From contig JABIHA010000080.1 in the NCBI GenBank assembly GCA_018649885.1, positions 46,621-66,620 of the forward strand: a stretch of DNA of 20,000 nucleotides, in the 5' to 3' direction. Source of the DNA: Bacteriovoracaceae bacterium (GTDB lineage Bacteria; Bdellovibrionota; Bacteriovoracia; Bacteriovoracales; Bacteriovoracaceae). The notes beneath the pieces were generated by a model that was not told where the DNA came from, made no database searches, and saw nothing but the letters and a program-made list of their open reading frames with translations. A program made the position numbers and the translations under genes. Positions 1-19,112 of the stretch are shown piece after piece; the stretch's first letter is position 1, and each line of letters starts with the position of its first letter.

Positions 1-350
1 ATAGAATCATCACCTCTTTCTGATTTATCGATTGTATCAAAATATGTTCGGTTATAGTTTTCGCCAGAAATTGGGTCGATTCGTCCAAATGTATAATCAC
101 CCATTTTTAAACATCCACCTAGTGGGTTGGCGTGCGGGACAATTGTAAAACTTCCTTTAAACGGAAGACTTTTTAAGGCCGACATTATTTTATAGATTAC
201 AGCATTGCCTTGAAGTTCTGCTCCATGAACAGAGGATTGAATGTATATATGGGGGCCGGGAATTTCTGAATCTAGATTAAACACAAGTATATCTTGAGTT
301 TGACCATTCACTTTTCTGGCTATGGTTTTCCTTTCTTTGGTAAATTTCAT
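1..350 (-). CDS. M14-like succinylglutamate desuccinylase/aspartoacylase (AstE/AspA) family zinc hydrolase, partial (runs off the left edge)
   Basis: Not in the ORF track; translated by hand from ATG at 350, one base after the lysA-like stop: MKFTKERKTIARKVNGQTQDILVFNLDSEIPGPHIYIQSSVHGAELQGNAVIYKIMSALKSLPFKGSFTIVPHANPLGGCLKMGDYTFGRIDPISGENYNRTYFD... Open to position 1. Has GP-x-IYI, HGAE (HxxE zinc ligands), vPxANP and NxNR, typical of the family. Confidence 0.85.
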   Translation of the reverse strand, partial: MKFTKERKTIARKVNGQTQDILVFNLDSEIPGPHIYIQSSVHGAELQGNAVIYKIMSALKSLPFKGSFTIVPHANPLGGCLKMGDYTFGRIDPISGENYNRTYFDTIDKSERGDDS

Positions 351-351
351 T

Positions 352-1575
352 TTATTTCATCCATTCAGAGGGAGGGCCAGGCCTTCTTATAAAGTTAATT
401 TCGCCTTCATCAAAGATGGCCTCACCAGGGAGAGTATGACACAGGAAAAAAGGCATGCTCTCTGTAAATCCGTAGGCACCACAATGTGTGAAGGCAATCC
501 AATCATCGATTTGTATATTTGTACTTAGCTTAAATGTTCCCAAGCGGTCTAGAGCTGTACAAAGTGGGCCGTGTAGCGAGTATTCTATTTTTTTATCAGC
601 ACTTTGATCTTTAAGGGATGTACAAGGAAAGTAGCTATCCGTGAGGACAGGTCTCAATATATGATTGACTCCCCCTTCAGTAATAATAAGGTTTTCACCT
701 CTTACTTTTTTCATATCTCCCACCTTCGTGAGATAACTCCCTATAGGTCCCGTTAAAATGCGGCCCAACTCTAGCCACAACTCTTCAAGGCCACTTTCTT
801 TTTTTAATTTTTGAAGAATGCTTTTAACACTGGCCAGATCTAGCTCATCACCGCTTTGCTCATAATCTAGTCCAAGTCCACCACCAAGATCGACCACTCG
901 AATGGGAAGAGAGAGTTTATTTGCGAACTTTTTTGAAAGAGTTATAATATGCTTCCAAATACTTTCTAGCTCACCACTATCAGTGATATTCCCCCATTGA
1001 AAGGCATGAATTCCTTTAAAATTGAGAACCTTAAAATAATCTTTCTTAGCAAGGGCATTTTCCCATTCATCTGGCGTCATACCAAAGGGGGTTTTTTGAT
1101 TGCCACCGAGGACGCTAAATTTTGTTGTCTCCCATTCCAGTTGGAATCTTAAAAGGATATCTATATCGCTAACCCCGTTGTCTGCGCAAATTTGATAGAG
1201 GTCATCTAGTTGGCGAGGTCCTTCGAGCACAAATGTTTTAACTCCAGAGTTAACTAGGGTTTCCAGGTACTTCCTCGACTTCAAAGGACCCGTACACAAA
1301 ATATTTTCTGGAGGGAAACCAGACTTTAGCCCGGCAATGAGTTCACCCTCGCTAGCGACATCCAGGCCAAGGTCTTGGCCTGCAATAGTTTTCAAAATAC
1401 TAGAAAGGGGATTTGCTTTACAGGCATACCAAAGTTTTATCCCTGGAGTTCTTAGTAACTGAATACGCTCAGAAAGTTGGTCCAACCTGTAAATAAAAAA
1501 TGGATGCTCGCAGTTCTTTGCAAACTCTGTGAGACTCTTCCAAAAACTGGAGCTATAATCCACCATTTTCTCCAT
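352..1575 (-). CDS. lysA: Fold-type III PLP-dependent decarboxylase, probable diaminopimelate decarboxylase (divergent LysA-like)
   Basis: YACKAN (PLP lysine), DVASEGE, DLGGGLG, ELGR, HGPLCTALD and GAYG motifs; lies in the dap operon and overlaps the dapD stop by 1 nt (TAATG). Confidence 0.8.
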   Translation of the reverse strand: MEKMVDYSSSFWKSLTEFAKNCEHPFFIYRLDQLSERIQLLRTPGIKLWYACKANPLSSILKTIAGQDLGLDVASEGELIAGLKSGFPPENILCTGPLKSRKYLETLVNSGVKTFVLEGPRQLDDLYQICADNGVSDIDILLRFQLEWETTKFSVLGGNQKTPFGMTPDEWENALAKKDYFKVLNFKGIHAFQWGNITDSGELESIWKHIITLSKKFANKLSLPIRVVDLGGGLGLDYEQSGDELDLASVKSILQKLKKESGLEELWLELGRILTGPIGSYLTKVGDMKKVRGENLIITEGGVNHILRPVLTDSYFPCTSLKDQSADKKIEYSLHGPLCTALDRLGTFKLSTNIQIDDWIAFTHCGAYGFTESMPFFLCHTLPGEAIFDEGEINFIRRPGPPSEWMK

Positions 1576-2324
1576 TATCTCAGTGCATCCTCAAGGGCCA
1601 AAGAAGCATTAGATTTTTCATCACGGTATTTAATAATAATAGGGCAATTGATATTGAGTCCTTGCTCGTGACCCCAAAATTGACCATGTGAAACGGGTCT
1701 TGTTCCTGGAACAACTACTGCATTTTCTGGAATGTCGGCACCTCTTTCTAAGATTTTTTGGTTAACGATATCGTAAACAGGTGTGGCCTTAGAAAGAATA
1801 ACTCCAGGAGCAATGACGGCCCCTTTTCTGACACAAATTCCCTCTACTATGACAGCTCCTGCTCCAATAAAGCAGTCGTCTTCGATCACAACTGGCGCAA
1901 GTCCTATTGGTTCGAGAACTCCTCCGATTTGAACACCTGCTGAAAGGTGAACATTTTTTCCAATCTGAGCACAACTTCCAACGAGGGCATGGCTGTCAAT
2001 CATCGTACCTGCATCTACGTAGGCACCAATATTGATATAGGCCGGTGGCATGATGACGACACCTCTTGCTACGAATGAGCCTCTTCTTACTGATGATCCA
2101 CCGGGGACAAGTCTAATTCCTTGTTCTGGGGTGAAATCTCTGGCCCAGATATTGTGTTTGTCTACAAAACCATCTTTTTCAGTGAGAATCCCTGCTCTAA
2201 AAACTTCCAGGATACCCTCTTTGACACTTGTATTGGCACTCCAGTTTCCCTTGTCATCTTTTACTGCTGCTCTTACTTCGCCGGACTGTAGTTGATCTAA
2301 CAACATTTCCAATTTATCACTCAT
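1575..2324 (-). CDS. dapD: 2,3,4,5-tetrahydropyridine-2,6-dicarboxylate N-succinyltransferase
   Basis: Hexapeptide-repeat protein with [50 protein letters not shown] and C-terminal LEDALR. Confidence 0.93.
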
Positions 2325-2341
2325 TACTTTTCACCTTTATC

Positions 2342-3226
2342 TTATGCGTTTTTCTTATACCAAGTATCGATTTGTGAATCGATTTCTTTGATTGATTCTA
2401 ATTCATGGAAATCTTCATGTGTAAGTGGAGGTCTGAGAAATGGTGTCTCAATCCACTCTTTAGCATGAAGAAGCGCCTTTGCAGGGATTGGGTTAGATGC
2501 CGTAAATAGTGAGGCAGAAGCTTTCTCCCACAGTGGCAGTGTTTCACTTCCTCTTCCAGTGAGGCAAAATTTTGTATACAAGTGAGTCTGTGCTGGCCAG
2601 ACATTTGCCGCAACAGAAACGAGTCCCGTAGCTCCTCTTAAAGCAAAGTAGGGCAGAAGCGCATCATCACCGCTAAATACTTTTTTGCTCGGCAAAGAGT
2701 CTACGAATTCACCAAATCTCTCAATGCTTCCACTAGCTTCTTTTACTGACCAGAAATTGGGGTGATCTTGTAATTCAATAAGTGCTTTCAAGCTAATTGG
2801 TGTTCCGGTTCTTCCTGGAACATTGTAGAGCATACAAGGTCTTGATGCTTTATCAAGTAGGGCCTGAAACCAATTTTTCTGTCCGATATCATTGGGTTTT
2901 GCATAAAGTGGAGTCACCATTAGGTAGCCTTGAACTTTTTGTCCCTCAAGATATTTGACCCACTCTAGAGTTGTTCCAAGGTTTACTCCTCCCACGCCTA
3001 CAAGTAGGGGAATACTTAAATTGAGGTCAGTGGAAAATTCAACTATTTTCTTTCTCTCGGATAGATCTAGGTTTAATGACTCACCCGTGCTACCAAGAAT
3101 CACCACACCATTTGAAGCTTCCTCTTGTTTTTTTAGTAATAGCTCTAGTTTTACAAAGTCTACAAGGCCATCCTGGTCTAGTGGGGTAATAATCGCGGTC
3201 CAAAGAGCATATTCGTTAATTGTCAT
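2342..3226 (-). CDS. dapA: 4-hydroxy-tetrahydrodipicolinate synthase
   Basis: TAIITP, GSTGE, TPLYAKP, YNVPGRTG, catalytic KEASG, SGDD and NPIPAK motifs; ATGA overlap with dapB. Confidence 0.95.
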   Translation of the reverse strand: MTINEYALWTAIITPLDQDGLVDFVKLELLLKKQEEASNGVVILGSTGESLNLDLSERKKIVEFSTDLNLSIPLLVGVGGVNLGTTLEWVKYLEGQKVQGYLMVTPLYAKPNDIGQKNWFQALLDKASRPCMLYNVPGRTGTPISLKALIELQDHPNFWSVKEASGSIERFGEFVDSLPSKKVFSGDDALLPYFALRGATGLVSVAANVWPAQTHLYTKFCLTGRGSETLPLWEKASASLFTASNPIPAKALLHAKEWIETPFLRPPLTHEDFHELESIKEIDSQIDTWYKKNA

Positions 3227-3912
3227 GAGTGTGTCTCCTGTAGTGTCTCAAAGTAATCATCGAGAACGTCATCAAATGAGTAAAGACCTGGGGCCTTGAT
3301 ATTTTTGCAAAAATACTCTGCTGCCCAGATTGCGCCTGAAGCAAAGAGTTTTCTATTTTTAGCTTTGTGAGTAAGAGAAATCATCTCATACTCTGATTCA
3401 ATTAAAAGTGTGTGGATTCCCACCACATCTCCCTCTCTGTGAGAAATCATCTCTGCGTCTAGGCCCAGCCAATCTTTCATAGAAAGTGCTGTACCACTTG
3501 GTGCATCTAATTTGTGAATATGGTGGGTTTCTTCGATCCTTATGCTTGGGGAATTCAGAATTTCTTTTGCAGCATTTAGGGTCTTAAGAACTCTTCTAAG
3601 TAAGTTAACTCCCATAGAAAAATTGGAGGCGTATAACCACTTTAGCTTTTGGTCTTTGATTGTCTTTGCAAGCTCACTAGAATAATCAAAACCTGTGGCC
3701 GCACTTACAACAGGAGTTTTAGACTCTAAAAATATTGGTACAAGGGAAGCAAACACTTCTGCAGATGTGAAAGTAATGATCACGTCTGCTTTACTTAGCG
3801 CCTCGGGTGTTGGAGGATTTTTTGAGTTAAAAGGACCTACAATATCACCTTGGTTTATTAGTTGGGTTAAAAGCCCCCCTGATTTTCCCGTTCCGACAAT
3901 GGCGACTTTCAC
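3223..3912 (-). CDS. dapB: 4-hydroxy-tetrahydrodipicolinate reductase
   Basis: N-terminal Rossmann VAIVGTGKSG, ATG, ASNFSMGV and signature ETHHIHKLDAPSGTA; GTG start overlaps the lysC TGA. Confidence 0.95.
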   Translation of the reverse strand: MKVAIVGTGKSGGLLTQLINQGDIVGPFNSKNPPTPEALSKADVIITFTSAEVFASLVPIFLESKTPVVSAATGFDYSSELAKTIKDQKLKWLYASNFSMGVNLLRRVLKTLNAAKEILNSPSIRIEETHHIHKLDAPSGTALSMKDWLGLDAEMISHREGDVVGIHTLLIESEYEMISLTHKAKNRKLFASGAIWAAEYFCKNIKAPGLYSFDDVLDDYFETLQETHS

Positions 3913-5306
3913 AATTTCACTCCTGGACAGGCTTGGGTAGGCTTTATATCAACTGGATTTTCAATGAAGTGCTTGTGTAAGTTTTTTAGTATGTTCTCAG
4001 CTTCATCTCTTTTTACAAGAAAACAAAGATTGTGTTGGCCGGCTCCATGGCATATGAGCCTTATAGAATGCTCACTTGTCACTTTGAAAATTTCTCCCAC
4101 AAGTTTAGGAGTATGGGCAATGTCATTGCCGATAACAGCTATTAAACAGAGGTTTTCTTCTAATTGAATATGGCAGTGCTCTTTTAGCTCTCTGGCAACA
4201 TCTCTTGTAAGGCTGGTTGGCTCGTCTAAGGTAATCGCTACATTAACTTCACTTGTTGTCACTAGATCTACACTTATTTTGTGCCTGGCCAAAATTGTAA
4301 ACACTTTGGCCAGGAACCCTGGGGCATGAACCATCTCCAGGCTGGTTAGGGTTAAAAGCTTTTGCTGGCGTCTCATAGCTAACGCCCTAACAAGAGGTCT
4401 ATTTTTAGATTTGGGCCTTACCCAAGTTCCACCCTCAAGATGATTTTGAGAGTTTCCCACATAGACTGGGATATTTTTTCTGATGGCAGGCCAAAGAGTT
4501 GCTGGATGAAGTACTTTGGCCCCAAAGGTAGATAGCTCTGCTGATTCATTAAAATTTATTTCGTCAATTTTAATGGCAGCTGAAACAACCCTCGGATCTG
4601 TGGTTTTCAGTCCTGGCACATCTGTCCATATTTGGAGCGTGCTAGCATCAAGTGCCTCTGCAATAAGAGCTGCGGAGTAATCTGAGCCGCCTCTACCAAG
4701 AGTTGTGGTCTTTCCCTCTTCATCGGAGCCAATAAAGCCCTGAGTAATGACAACATGGTTTTCACAAAGCGGAGTTATTTTCTCTTTTGCAAGGGTTTTG
4801 ATTAATTCTAGATCGGGAATCGCTTTTCCAAAATCAGAGTTTGTTTTCATGACTTCTCTAATATCAAGCCAAGTAGCATTGATACCACAGTCCTGTAATA
4901 ACTCAGTAAAAAGCAGAGAAGAAAGTCTTTCACCTATAGACAGAAGTGAATCGGTGGCCTGGAGTGAAGCCTCACACAAAAGAGACATCCCTATTGCTAA
5001 ATTTTTGGCAGCTAATACTAGCTCTTCGATTTTTTTAAGTGTCTCTGCCCTTACACCAATGTCAGACGCCATAGAGAGGTGTTTTTCTTCAAGATCTTTT
5101 AAGAGCTGTTCTATTCGAGCTTGGTTTTTTTCACCGTATATGGATAGCTTTGCTAGCTCTACAAGAATATTAGTTGTGCCTGAGGTGGCACTGACTAAAA
5201 CTACCCTTAGATCTGGGTAGGCCTTTATAGTTTCACCGCATTTTTCCATGGCCTTCTTACTGCCCATGCTGGTTCCACCAAATTTTGCAACAACCGTTGT
5301 ACTCAT
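3909..5306 (-). CDS. lysC: Aspartokinase, lysine-sensitive AK III-like, with two C-terminal ACT domains
   Basis: VVAKFGGTS, SIGERLS, TTTLGRGGSDYSAAL, WTDVPG, DPR and GAKVLHP; ACT1 SLEMVHAPGFLAKVF...ISVDLVTTSEV closely resembles E. coli AK III. Confidence 0.96.
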   Translation of the reverse strand: MSTTVVAKFGGTSMGSKKAMEKCGETIKAYPDLRVVLVSATSGTTNILVELAKLSIYGEKNQARIEQLLKDLEEKHLSMASDIGVRAETLKKIEELVLAAKNLAIGMSLLCEASLQATDSLLSIGERLSSLLFTELLQDCGINATWLDIREVMKTNSDFGKAIPDLELIKTLAKEKITPLCENHVVITQGFIGSDEEGKTTTLGRGGSDYSAALIAEALDASTLQIWTDVPGLKTTDPRVVSAAIKIDEINFNESAELSTFGAKVLHPATLWPAIRKNIPVYVGNSQNHLEGGTWVRPKSKNRPLVRALAMRRQQKLLTLTSLEMVHAPGFLAKVFTILARHKISVDLVTTSEVNVAITLDEPTSLTRDVARELKEHCHIQLEENLCLIAVIGNDIAHTPKLVGEIFKVTSEHSIRLICHGAGQHNLCFLVKRDEAENILKNLHKHFIENPVDIKPTQACPGVKL

Positions 5307-5308
5307 AA

Positions 5309-6298
5309 TTAAACCTTTAGTTTTTGAACGGCCAGTTCTAGGTTTGCAATGGCCGCGCCAGCAGCACCTCGAACTAAATTGTGACCCATTGAAATTAGGC
5401 CAATGATATTTTTTCTTCCGCCTTGCTTGATTCTTCCTATGTGAGCAAATTGATCAAACTCAGTAAGATCTTTTGCCGGCTGAGGTCGATCCTCCTCAGT
5501 ATATATTTTAAAGGCCTTGGGAAAACGCTCCTCCCAATTATTTAGAACACTGAGCGCATCATCTACTTTTACATCTTGATCAAAACTTACATGCATGGCC
5601 ACGGTGTGGCCGTGGATAACAGGAACCCTGTGGACATGAGTTGTAATACTAAAATCGGCGTCTTTTCCGGCACTTCCTAGTATCTTTAAGGCCTCTTGGT
5701 TAATTTTGTCTTCTTCTCCGCCAATAAATGGAATGATATTGCCCATGATATCCATGGAGGGAATTCCTGGATAGCCTGCACCACTAATGGCCTGTAGTGT
5801 GACTACAGATACGTGAGTTATCTTTCCAAGACTCATCAGTGGAGCAAGTCCCATGGAGAGAAAAACAGTGGCACAGTTGGGATTGGTAATAATTTTCCCT
5901 TTTGTACTTTGACTATCAACTAAGCTTATATGATCACCATTTATTTCTGGGATCATCAGTGGGACATTTGCCTCCATTCTCATAGCACTTGCATTTGAGA
6001 TGACATGTATGCCTTTTTCTGCAAGGGCGGGCTCAACTTCCCCTGCCATATCTCCTGGAAGTGCAGACAGCACAAAGGGGCTTTCAACATCGAGGCAATT
6101 TTTTAAGACCATCTTCCCCACATTTTCGGGAAGGGAGCTTTTTTCTCTCCAAGTACATGCATCACGGTAAATTTTTCCAGCATTTTTTGGAGAGGCGGCA
6201 ATTTCTCCAACGTAAAAATCTGGGTGTCTTTCCACCATAGCGATGAGTTTTTGTCCTACTGTGCCTGTGGCCGCCAAAATGGCAACTGGAGTTGTCAT
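5309..6298 (-). CDS. asd: Aspartate-semialdehyde dehydrogenase (archaeal/eukaryotic/Bacteroidota-like type)
   Basis: ATGTVGQ, SNASAMRM, NPNC (catalytic Cys), QAISGAGYPG, PFIGGEEDK, RVPVIHGH and HNLVRGAAG. Start moved from 6325 to the ATG at 6298 because AAGGAG lies 6 nt upstream of it. Confidence 0.95.
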   Translation of the reverse strand: MTTPVAILAATGTVGQKLIAMVERHPDFYVGEIAASPKNAGKIYRDACTWREKSSLPENVGKMVLKNCLDVESPFVLSALPGDMAGEVEPALAEKGIHVISNASAMRMEANVPLMIPEINGDHISLVDSQSTKGKIITNPNCATVFLSMGLAPLMSLGKITHVSVVTLQAISGAGYPGIPSMDIMGNIIPFIGGEEDKINQEALKILGSAGKDADFSITTHVHRVPVIHGHTVAMHVSFDQDVKVDDALSVLNNWEERFPKAFKIYTEEDRPQPAKDLTEFDQFAHIGRIKQGGRKNIIGLISMGHNLVRGAAGAAIANLELAVQKLKV

Positions 6299-6351
6299 TA
6301 CGTGCTCCTTGATTGAAAAAATCATTATAGTAACTATGAAGTGGTTTGAGG

Positions 6352-16571: not shown

Positions 16572-18425
16572 ATGACTACAAAGTTTAGCGGTGCAAAAGT
16601 TTCAAACAAAAAAATCAAGACTAAAAGTCAATGGAATTACTCTGCATTTAATAAAATTGATGGATCGCATCCTTACCGAGATCAAGTGGAAGGCGGGCAC
16701 ATCGGCTATGATGCAAGGCTAAAGCCTGGGGGTAGTATTCTCTACTTTAATTTTGATTTGGCCCGCGAGATGGGGCTTATTCCAAAGGGTCACCCTGAAA
16801 AAATGAGCAAAAAACTTGAGCGTGTTTTGCTTGAGACATTTGGTATCCAAATAATTAATGAGTACGACATCGAAAGTGGTGTGGAAATAGATAAAAGCCA
16901 AATTAAATCAAAGAAATATATGGCCACACGTTATCTGCAACTACAACACCCAAAAAAAGATGGAAGCACATCAGGAGATGGAAGATCTATTTGGAATGGA
17001 CATTTTTCCAATGGTCGAACTACCTGGGATATATCAAGTTGTGGTACTGGAGCGACGAAACTCAGTCCAGCAACTGCTATCCAAGGACGTTACTTTGAAA
17101 CAGGGGACCCCACAATTTCCTATGGGTGTGGACTCGCCGACCTAAGCGATGGTCTTAGTGGAGCAATTTTAAGTGAAATTTTTCATAATAATGGAATAAA
17201 AACTGAGAGGACGCTTGCCTTAATAGAGTACAAAGGTGGTCTTTCTATAAATATTCGAGCTGGTCTTAATTTACTTAGGCCCAGTCATTTTTTCATGTTT
17301 TTAAAACAATCCAATTATCAGTCTCTAAAATCGTCAGTGGATTTATTTATTGAAAGACAAGCTTCAAATGGTGATTTTGATAAGTCGTGTTGCCGGAAAA
17401 ACAAATATGATTATTTTTTGAGACAAATGATAGATTCTTTTGCAGAAATTTGTGCAAAATTTGAAAGTGAATATATCTTTTGTTGGCTTGATTGGGATGG
17501 TGACAATATCCTCGCAGATGGTGGGATTATTGACTATGGAAGTGTAAGACAATTTGGATTATTTCATCATGAGTACAGGTATGATGATGTAGAGAGATGG
17601 TCTACTACTTTGACAGAACAAAAACAAAAGACAAAGCATATCTGTCAAACTTTTGTTCAACTTGTAGATTACCTAAAAACTGGAAAGAAGAAACCTTGGA
17701 AGACTTTTTCTGACAATGAAGAGTTAAAAAAATTCGATACTTTATATTTTCAATATAAGAAGCAGTTTTTACTCGAAAAAATAGGATTTAAAAAGACACA
17801 CATTACATATTTACTTAGATACCACGATAAAAAAGTGGAAAGGTTTTATAAGGTTTTTAGGCTATTCGAAAAATCCAAATCAGATGAGGGGAAAATTAAA
17901 ATTTCTGATGGAGTCACTCATAATGCAATTTTTTGTATGAGAGATATACTGAGAAGTCTTCCCCATATGATAGCTACAAATGATCTTTTTCCAGAAACAT
18001 TTATGGATACTATGAGGTCACAGTATGCCACTGATGCTGATGCACACTTATCAGCTCATAGAGTTCAAAAAATTGAGCAATTTACCAGATACTATATAAG
18101 TCTTCTGGATCTTATATCAAATCATTTTAAAATCTCAGAAAGTCAGCTGCTTAAAGAGTTGGGAATGAGGGCCTCTATTATCAATCGATATGATAGAGTG
18201 ACAGGAGACGCTATAATACTAGTAAGTGATCATCTCCTCAAAAAGAGAAAAAAAGTAAAAGTCGATGACTTTTACAAATTAGTTAGAAAGTTTATTAATT
18301 ATCAAACTCTTATACCAACGATGGGTCGCCGGTCAGAGGAAGCAGCTTCCTTTAAAAGAAAAGACCTGCAGGGTATATTTGGTGCAATTACAAAAATAGT
18401 CCGAAATTTGAGAGAAGGTATATAA
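16572..18425 (+). CDS. Divergent SelO/YdiU (UPF0061) family kinase-like protein
   Basis: Collinear SelO-like motifs: FNFDLAREMGL, SGDGRS, GTGAT-x-LS, GIKTERTLALI, IRAGLNLLRPSHF, DNIL and IIDYG. Several canonical residues are substituted. Confidence 0.72.
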   Translation: MTTKFSGAKVSNKKIKTKSQWNYSAFNKIDGSHPYRDQVEGGHIGYDARLKPGGSILYFNFDLAREMGLIPKGHPEKMSKKLERVLLETFGIQIINEYDIESGVEIDKSQIKSKKYMATRYLQLQHPKKDGSTSGDGRSIWNGHFSNGRTTWDISSCGTGATKLSPATAIQGRYFETGDPTISYGCGLADLSDGLSGAILSEIFHNNGIKTERTLALIEYKGGLSINIRAGLNLLRPSHFFMFLKQSNYQSLKSSVDLFIERQASNGDFDKSCCRKNKYDYFLRQMIDSFAEICAKFESEYIFCWLDWDGDNILADGGIIDYGSVRQFGLFHHEYRYDDVERWSTTLTEQKQKTKHICQTFVQLVDYLKTGKKKPWKTFSDNEELKKFDTLYFQYKKQFLLEKIGFKKTHITYLLRYHDKKVERFYKVFRLFEKSKSDEGKIKISDGVTHNAIFCMRDILRSLPHMIATNDLFPETFMDTMRSQYATDADAHLSAHRVQKIEQFTRYYISLLDLISNHFKISESQLLKELGMRASIINRYDRVTGDAIILVSDHLLKKRKKVKVDDFYKLVRKFINYQTLIPTMGRRSEEAASFKRKDLQGIFGAITKIVRNLREGI

Positions 18426-18437
18426 CCATACTGTTAG

Positions 18438-19112
18438 GTGGAAATGAAGCTCGTTTTGTATAGTGGGGGGAATAACCTCGAAAATTTTGAAATGGATACA
18501 GAACTTAAAGCGCTCTTTACTAAAGAAAATCCAAGCATTACCTTTATTCCTTCATCCTTTGATGATGCCTCTGAAGATTTTGATGAATTTTGCAGTTACT
18601 ACGAAAAGTATCATTTTACTGATTTTTCTATTTTTCCACTTGATGTACCGTTCAATGAAAACTCCCTAGATAAAATTTTTAAAAGGGATATGATTTATCT
18701 GGCAGGTGGAAATACCTATTACTTTTTGAAATACCTCAGAAAGAGTGGATTCAAAAATCGCATAGGACATTTTCTTAGAAGGGGAGGCATATTAGTCGGA
18801 CAATCGGCCGGTGCTATTGTGATGACTCCCAATATTTTAACTGCAGGTTTTCCCTCATTCGATAAAGATGAAAATGAAGTGAAAATCAAAAACCTTACAG
18901 GGTTTAAGTTAGTGAATTTTGAGTTTTTCCCACATTATATTCATTCAAGAAGGTATATTGATGAGCTGCAAAGGTACTCAAGGATTTCAAAGAATCCCGT
19001 ACTTGCATGCTATGATGGATCGGGAGTTGTGATAAATGGTCAAAGGACAACATTTGTTGGAAAGGTCTATCTCTTCCATGGTGGCATTGTTTCAAAATTA
19101 TCAAACGCATAA
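18438..19112 (+). CDS. Peptidase S51 (dipeptidase E-like, class I glutamine-amidotransferase-like fold)
   Basis: ITFIPSS, IYLAGGNT, nucleophile GQSAGA and FFPHY; starts 12 nt after the SelO-like gene. The true start may be ATG 18444. Confidence 0.88.
   Translation: MEMKLVLYSGGNNLENFEMDTELKALFTKENPSITFIPSSFDDASEDFDEFCSYYEKYHFTDFSIFPLDVPFNENSLDKIFKRDMIYLAGGNTYYFLKYLRKSGFKNRIGHFLRRGGILVGQSAGAIVMTPNILTAGFPSFDKDENEVKIKNLTGFKLVNFEFFPHYIHSRRYIDELQRYSRISKNPVLACYDGSGVVINGQRTTFVGKVYLFHGGIVSKLSNA

Follow-up and report, generated by a model that had tools for sequence, protein, structure and literature searches.

To our knowledge, all described diaminopimelate (DAP) routes to lysine meet at meso-DAP and LysA. 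DAP decarboxylase is called the common final step in passages of PMC8277567. Operons of this pathway under a lysine riboswitch have been published: Mukherjee et al. 2017 (PMC5584792) give lysC-dapB-dapA-dapD-lysA for Bacteriovorax marinus and dapA-dapD-lysA-hypothetical1-hypothetical2 for Pseudoalteromonas. In the passages of that paper on these operons the decarboxylase goes by the plain name lysA, and the gene after it has neither a name nor an assigned function; the words "desuccinylase" and "dapE" are absent from its main text. For the replacement of missing DapEs there is a precedent, the recently confirmed metal-dependent amidohydrolase Echvi_1427 (passages of PMC13759103). DapE (M20A) and this Bacteroidota alternative DapE possibly act at the same pathway step as the enzyme described below, but their fold is unrelated to it; "M14", "Bdellovibrio" and "Bacteriovorax" are absent from the main text of PMC13759103.

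The CphZ/AotO cyanophycin dipeptide hydrolases (PDB 8EIN/8EIP) act on beta-Asp-Arg/Lys, and their activity on N2-succinyl-Arg was undetectable, according to passages of Sharon et al. (PMC9974463). There, the carboxylate is held by R102, N112 and R113 and the basic side chain by D222 and E223; contacts to the aspartyl part come from D181 and K366 (the K366 position being K, H or R). The same passages propose that two proteins which are themselves uncharacterised, PDB 3FMC and 3LWU, are probably CphZs and conserve both pockets. AstE and DoeB/EutE are also M14-type N-acyl amino acid deacylases (PF24827). Among the fold-III decarboxylases, BtrK, SbnH and FigC act on acylated substrates (passages of PMC7857480). 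In the titles, abstract openings and passages covered by our literature search, which left most subscription journals and supplements outside, neither an M14 substitute for DapE nor a succinyl-DAP decarboxylase is described.

We analysed a window of 20,000 nucleotides from a Bacteriovoracaceae bacterium (contig JABIHA010000080.1 of GCA_018649885.1). It carries, on the minus strand, the gene order asd-lysC-dapB-dapA-dapD-lysA*-M14 under a lysine riboswitch (RF00168, 6381..6559; 89.3 bits vs a cut-off of 30, E 1e-22). The genes asd (5309..6325; TIGR00978), lysC, a lysine-sensitive aspartokinase (3909..5306; PRK09084), and dapA (2342..3226; TIGR00674) are above the cut-offs of their models, while dapB, a short form (3223..3912), is below its own (TIGR00036, 115 bits vs 122). 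DapD (1575..2324; 249 aa) belongs to a short divergent subfamily (PRK11830, 293 bits vs 204). It is followed by LysA*, a divergent fold-III PLP decarboxylase of 407 aa (352..1575), and by an M14 zinc deacylase resembling CphZ/AotO (P0001), the first 116 of whose 385 codons lie in the window (1..350). The genes upstream of M14 overlap by at most 4 nt or are separated by at most 17 nt. The M14 ORF starts at position 350, 1 nt past the stop of the lysA-like gene, in a dapD operon under a lysine riboswitch, just as the initial annotation had described it. The leftward extension of the contig which that annotation proposed yields the full enzyme of 385 aa, with a stop at window -807 (G000:C17:45813). 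The neighbour past this stop is convergent, so that M14 is the final gene of the operon. A scan of L001 15000-19901 gave promoters at chance level (12 vs 10.3 by chance) and 8 terminator-like sites vs 4.3 expected, none of them at the operon end. Within M14 itself, the coding strand holds a hairpin of 14 pairs followed by a T-rich tail (L001:16604-16635, window -16 to 15), which may be due to chance. At the other end of the window (16572-19112) a SelO-like adenylyltransferase gene (PF02696, weak) precedes a gene for a peptidase S51 that does not reach the cyanophycinase cut-off.

The M14-type motifs HxxE (H42-G-A-E45), ANP (74-76) and NxNR (98-101), which the initial annotation had named, are inside the window; the third zinc ligand H184 and the catalytic E255 fall past its edge and were found by the extension. 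M14 is not of the M20 type: its sole profile match is PF24827 (AstE_AspA_cat, 51.7 bits vs a cut-off of 25), and the TIGR01246 matches of the genome are on other contigs. No AstE model is listed among its matches at E 0.001; TIGR02994 gives 20 bits vs 403. The predicted structure (pLDDT 95) has its best fold matches in 3LWU and 3FMC (Z 49, rmsd 1.5 Å over 366-367 residues, 35% identity). These are a Shewanella frigidimarina protein and Sama_0604, respectively, and they belong to the subfamily of M14 itself (E 6e-67 for Sama_0604 and 3e-64 for 3LWU). Next come CphZ (Z 39.5, rmsd 2.4 Å over 352 residues, 22% identity, E 1e-18), DoeB (Z 27.4) and AstE (Z 17.7-19.6). The closest characterised relative of M14 is CphZ, not AstE. 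Close homologues come from e.g. Bacteriovoracaceae and Halobacteriovoraceae, and the host is accordingly probably a predator of the Bdellovibrionota.

A role as AstE should nevertheless be weighed, since the host has a partial arginine succinyltransferase cluster (C57; G000:C57:34750-40016, L041) with an aminotransferase, an AstA-like gene, a probable aldehyde dehydrogenase and no astE among the listed ORFs. That M14 is the AstE of this cluster, or that the product of its module is not lysine, appears very unlikely given the structural distance of M14 from AstE, its acidic pocket, which suits a basic side chain, and its control by a lysine riboswitch. An amidinotransferase-like gene also lies near the cluster; it and the aldehyde dehydrogenase are judged from sequence.

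We compared the active site of M14 with that of CphZ in 144 homologues. The zinc ligands H42 and E45 are present in 141 (3 gaps) and H184 and E255 in 144/144; these four residues align with H50, E53, H179 and E251 of CphZ. The carboxylate clamp R90, N100 and R101 (R102, N112 and R113 of CphZ) is found in 144/144, and D223 and E224, which form an acidic pocket for a Lys or Arg side chain (D222-E223 of CphZ), in 143/144 each. CphZ and M14 thus have in common the zinc H-E-H, the catalytic Glu, the R/N/R clamp and the D-E pocket. Unlike CphZ, M14 sits in a lysine operon, not in a cyanophycin or aot operon, and has Gly or Ala for D181: mapped by sequence alignment, the equivalent residue is A186 here, and Gly in 134, Ala in 9 and Asp in 1 of the 144 homologues. 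The alignments of M14 to 8EIN stop short of CphZ K366. At D181, the alignment does not bear out the proposal that 3FMC and 3LWU are CphZs with both pockets conserved. Clamp, acidic pocket and D181 position together suggest that M14 acts on a basic amino acid acylated at N2, the acyl group itself being free of an amine.

The same comparison bears on a salvage role, in which M14 would be a CphZ-like hydrolase of beta-Asp-Lys or another N2-acyl-lysine, and the lysine so released would account for its place under the riboswitch. The kinship with CphZ and the assignment of 3FMC and 3LWU by Sharon et al. are in its favour, but Gly or Ala occupies the D181 position in 143/144 homologues and no cyanophycinase above cut-off was found in the host genome. 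We consider this role quite improbable for the operon enzyme.

LysA*, which the initial annotation took as a lysA-like neighbour, proves to be non-canonical: it reaches 202 bits with TIGR01048, below the cut-off of 298. A canonical LysA (451 bits) and DapF are encoded on other contigs of the host genome. LysA* retains the PLP machinery and both distal-carboxylate arginines (R272 and R308; K53, H190, E269 and C339 are also kept), but T340 replaces the Glu of DAP decarboxylases. T340 aligns with E315 of the Thermotoga maritima enzyme and is Thr in 95/95 orthologues. E315 binds the distal amine; the change E315T lowers the activity on meso-DAP from 675 to 26 mU/mg, and the mutant is still D-specific on aminopimelate (passages of PMC8277567). 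BtrK shares with LysA* a Cys-Thr motif and an F-L-x-H motif. LysA* is 26-28% identical to BtrK and SbnH; for FigC the value is 20%. BtrK, SbnH and FigC/FslC are fold-III enzymes that decarboxylate acylated amino acids, but unlike LysA* they work in the production of antibiotics or siderophores. The fold search gives no separation, DAP decarboxylases being tied with BtrK/SbnH (Z 39-40). Phe377 of LysA* is present in the canonical LysA of the host too, and for this reason the Tyr/Phe rule for D- or L-specificity was set aside. This canonical LysA (L016:1096-2502, G000:C16) has Phe (SSHFNSRP) at a position that is Tyr in all five solved DAP decarboxylases of the alignment. In view of the shared Phe377 and the fold tie, a specificity of LysA* for an L-centre is putative, which counts against the branch proposed below.

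We favour, tentatively and just short of calling it probable, a branch in which LysA* decarboxylates N-acyl-LL-DAP and M14 releases lysine, so that DapE, DapF and meso-DAP are bypassed. What was observed is how the genes are ordered, the riboswitch, the co-occurrence, the fold and which residues are kept or changed; all substrates and the sequence of the reactions are inferred, as follows. DapD would form an N-acyl keto-pimelate (the acyl group being probably succinyl, possibly acetyl), which an aminotransferase encoded elsewhere would convert to N-acyl-LL-DAP. LysA* would strip the carboxyl at the free L-centre to give N2-acyl-L-lysine, and the zinc hydrolase M14 would release L-lysine from it, the whole branch being under the lysine riboswitch. 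The DAP of peptidoglycan would come from a separate enzyme, for which a short MpaA-like M14 is the best candidate. The absence of dapE and dapF from the operon would be explained by such decarboxylation followed by deacylation. The Thr of LysA* at the distal-amine Glu, the pocket of M14, the co-occurrence of the two proteins and the presence of canonical LysA and DapF elsewhere in the host all argue for the branch. Against it, the free amine of succinyl-DAP could occupy the same acidic pocket, and CphZ is without detectable activity on N2-succinyl-Arg in the passages of PMC9974463 cited above.

For the first two steps of the branch, the operon DapD has IGAG(A/S)V and DSHA where solved proteobacterial DapDs show IGARSE and DTWA. 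We take the R-S-E of IGARSE to bear on acyl specificity; the difference suggests that the acyl group may not be succinyl but possibly acetyl. No clear DapC was found in the host genome; one candidate, which reaches none of the model cut-offs, is the class III aminotransferase next to the astA-like gene. Possible DapC substitutes are seen in metagenome loci: an ornithine-aminotransferase-like gene follows LysA* in place of M14 in two high-GC loci (L252:7332-8630 and L253:7237-8430), and a class I aminotransferase-like gene follows M14 in L251, L259, L267, L280, L287 and L290.

We searched one set of 111 genomes of the host family, each at least 90% complete, for each gene. Long M14, the type of the operon, is found in 63/111; dapD is present in 98/111 and dapF in 105/111. 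Both M14 and LysA* occur in 57 genomes, M14 alone in 6, LysA* alone in 4 and neither in 44, the genomes being related and thus not independent. The long M14 is present in 61 of the 98 dapD-positive genomes and missing from the 37 others; it follows LysA* more closely than dapD. LysA* is the sole match to the LysA* query in 15/61 genomes, so that a diverged ordinary LysA also fits. In addition, 80 metagenome loci were found with a LysA* profile; dapD is present in 72 and M14 in 63. Where at least 500 nt are available downstream, M14 is found in 59/66, an adjacency to dapD-lysA* that salvage leaves unexplained, and is lacking in 7/66. These 7 loci and the 4 family genomes with LysA* but no long M14 count against the branch, as do the 6 with M14 but no LysA*.

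Outside the family, the best 80 M14 loci of named genomes are Alteromonadales-type, with 35-40% identity. Seven of them are dapD-lysA*-M14 and 5 dapA-M14, and the remaining 68 have no dap gene nearby, in line with salvage, for which the unlinked copies of Alteromonas probably serve. A lysine riboswitch is found at 8/8 dap-linked M14 loci scanned and at 0/8 unlinked loci. It is present at 2/11 family dapD regions scanned, so that control by a riboswitch is not universal. LysA* is missing in 43/50 Alteromonadales M14 carriers, a further point against the branch; these include the 5 riboswitch/dapA-M14 loci (riboswitch in 4/4 scanned). The Alteromonadales-type carriers of dapD-lysA*-M14 keep a canonical dapE (6/7), a second dapD of canonical type (3/3 tested) and a further LysA-like gene (7/7). 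The short-type DapD travels together with LysA* and M14, entering genomes in which a canonical dapD is already present, and because these carriers keep canonical dapE and dapD, the module can be argued to do more than duplicate DapE. In a FastTree phylogeny of M14 (102 rows, 53 unlinked Alteromonadales-type rows having been dropped) the unlinked Alteromonadaceae group together in a single clade, whose sister is the Gammaproteobacterial clade with linkage to dap genes. As the root is unresolved, we claim no direction of transfer.

Some other arrangements were seen among these loci. Low-GC marine metagenome contigs (L260, L262, L263, L268-L270, L272 and L274) carry dapB-dapA-dapD-lysA*-M14, several with a convergent dapF, and their M14s cluster in the tree with the family genomes G003 and G079, which hints at transfer. 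Two M14 copies lie within 8 kb at L094, L097 and L121, among some Glaciecola, Paraglaciecola and Alteromonas loci. The M14-bearing Glaciecola genomes G159 and G164, whose completeness is not given, have no TIGR01246 match at E 1e-22, in contrast to 47 of the 50 carriers tested.

The initial annotation had proposed M14 as a non-orthologous replacement of DapE. The gap that this supposes was found: DapE above cut-off is present in 0/111 family genomes, and so is DapL (TIGR03542 only), and neither these two nor Ddh, looked for in the host genome only, is above cut-off there. The host genome is 92% complete, and it is therefore the family-wide searches that carry the claim of absence; with both counts at zero the deacylase gap is real. 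The best M20s of the host are ArgE-like (292 bits vs 298) and YgeY. An M20D amidohydrolase, which has a family resemblance to the Bacteroidota alternative DapE but is not called its orthologue, was rejected as gap filler, being present in the host but in only 9/111 family genomes.

With such a gap, M14 could be a direct deacylase of N-succinyl (or acetyl)-LL-DAP, acting as a lysine-regulated isoenzyme next to a LysA* that is a diverged meso-DAP decarboxylase; we count under this reading also an M14 that acts on both acyl-DAP and acyl-lysine. Besides the zero counts of DapE and DapL and the scarcity of the M20D enzyme, this would agree with the four family genomes in which M14 comes directly after dapD without LysA* (G050, G089, G105 and G108), and with the existence of riboswitch-dapA-M14 units lacking LysA*. 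We nevertheless hold it to be rather unlikely: M14 is missing from 37 of the 98 dapD genomes, it tracks LysA* more than dapD, and the invariant change of Glu to Thr in LysA* is left unexplained. Moreover dapE is found alongside M14 in 47 of the 50 Alteromonadales carriers tested, so that the expected anticorrelation with dapE fails.

The housekeeping role of DapE in the family is better suited to another enzyme, a short MpaA-like M14 of 220-250 aa (E 3e-30 to MpaA). MpaA cuts the gamma-glutamyl-DAP bond, which is chemically near succinyl-DAP. The short M14 exceeds 200 bits in 96/111 family genomes, the host copy being at L042:1114-1803 (G000:C148:9244-9933). It is present in 36 of the 37 dapD genomes without long M14, which speaks against the latter as the DapE replacement of the family. 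Conversely, a strong short M14 is missing from 7 dapD genomes, 6 of which have the long one, so that the long enzyme might still cover the DapE step as direct deacylation supposes; 97/98 hold at least one type. In 4 family genomes dapD is immediately preceded by the short M14, with a second copy retained in 3 of the 4. In other families of the phylum (L351-L376), the short M14 adjoins dapD at 22/26 loci. We see it as the best candidate for the DapE of the phylum. In the host family it is often beside a gene named queD-like from its sequence. A second AstE-like gene, which follows dapD in G183, was also considered and rejected, since it is a weak match (E 3e-5) outside the long-M14 subfamily.

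The initial proposal thus stands in part. A role in lysine synthesis and a conserved linkage to dap genes are supported, and where the annotation named N-succinyl-LL-DAP or a related intermediate as substrate, it is the related intermediate that is now favoured, whereas a general substitute for DapE is not. Taking the branch and direct acyl-DAP deacylation together, it is quite likely that M14 is an undescribed enzyme of lysine synthesis. The operon itself is known; what would be new is the proposed variant of the known lysine pathway.

If acyl-LL-DAP is indeed decarboxylated, the supply of lysine would be uncoupled from that of cell-wall DAP and have its own riboswitch control, and a clade annotated as "lysA" would be misannotated. 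A wider reading, which we put forward with still more reserve than the branch, is that a dapD-lysA*-M14 module common to predatory Bdellovibrionota and marine Gammaproteobacteria makes lysine that never passes via meso-DAP, the MpaA-like M14 being the DapE of the phylum. Together, the module and the MpaA-like DapE would amount to a further branch of the DAP pathway, with up to three new enzyme activities. Even under direct deacylation, an enzyme of M14 fold would act at the DapE step in a family where neither DapE nor DapL is found in any of the 111 genomes.
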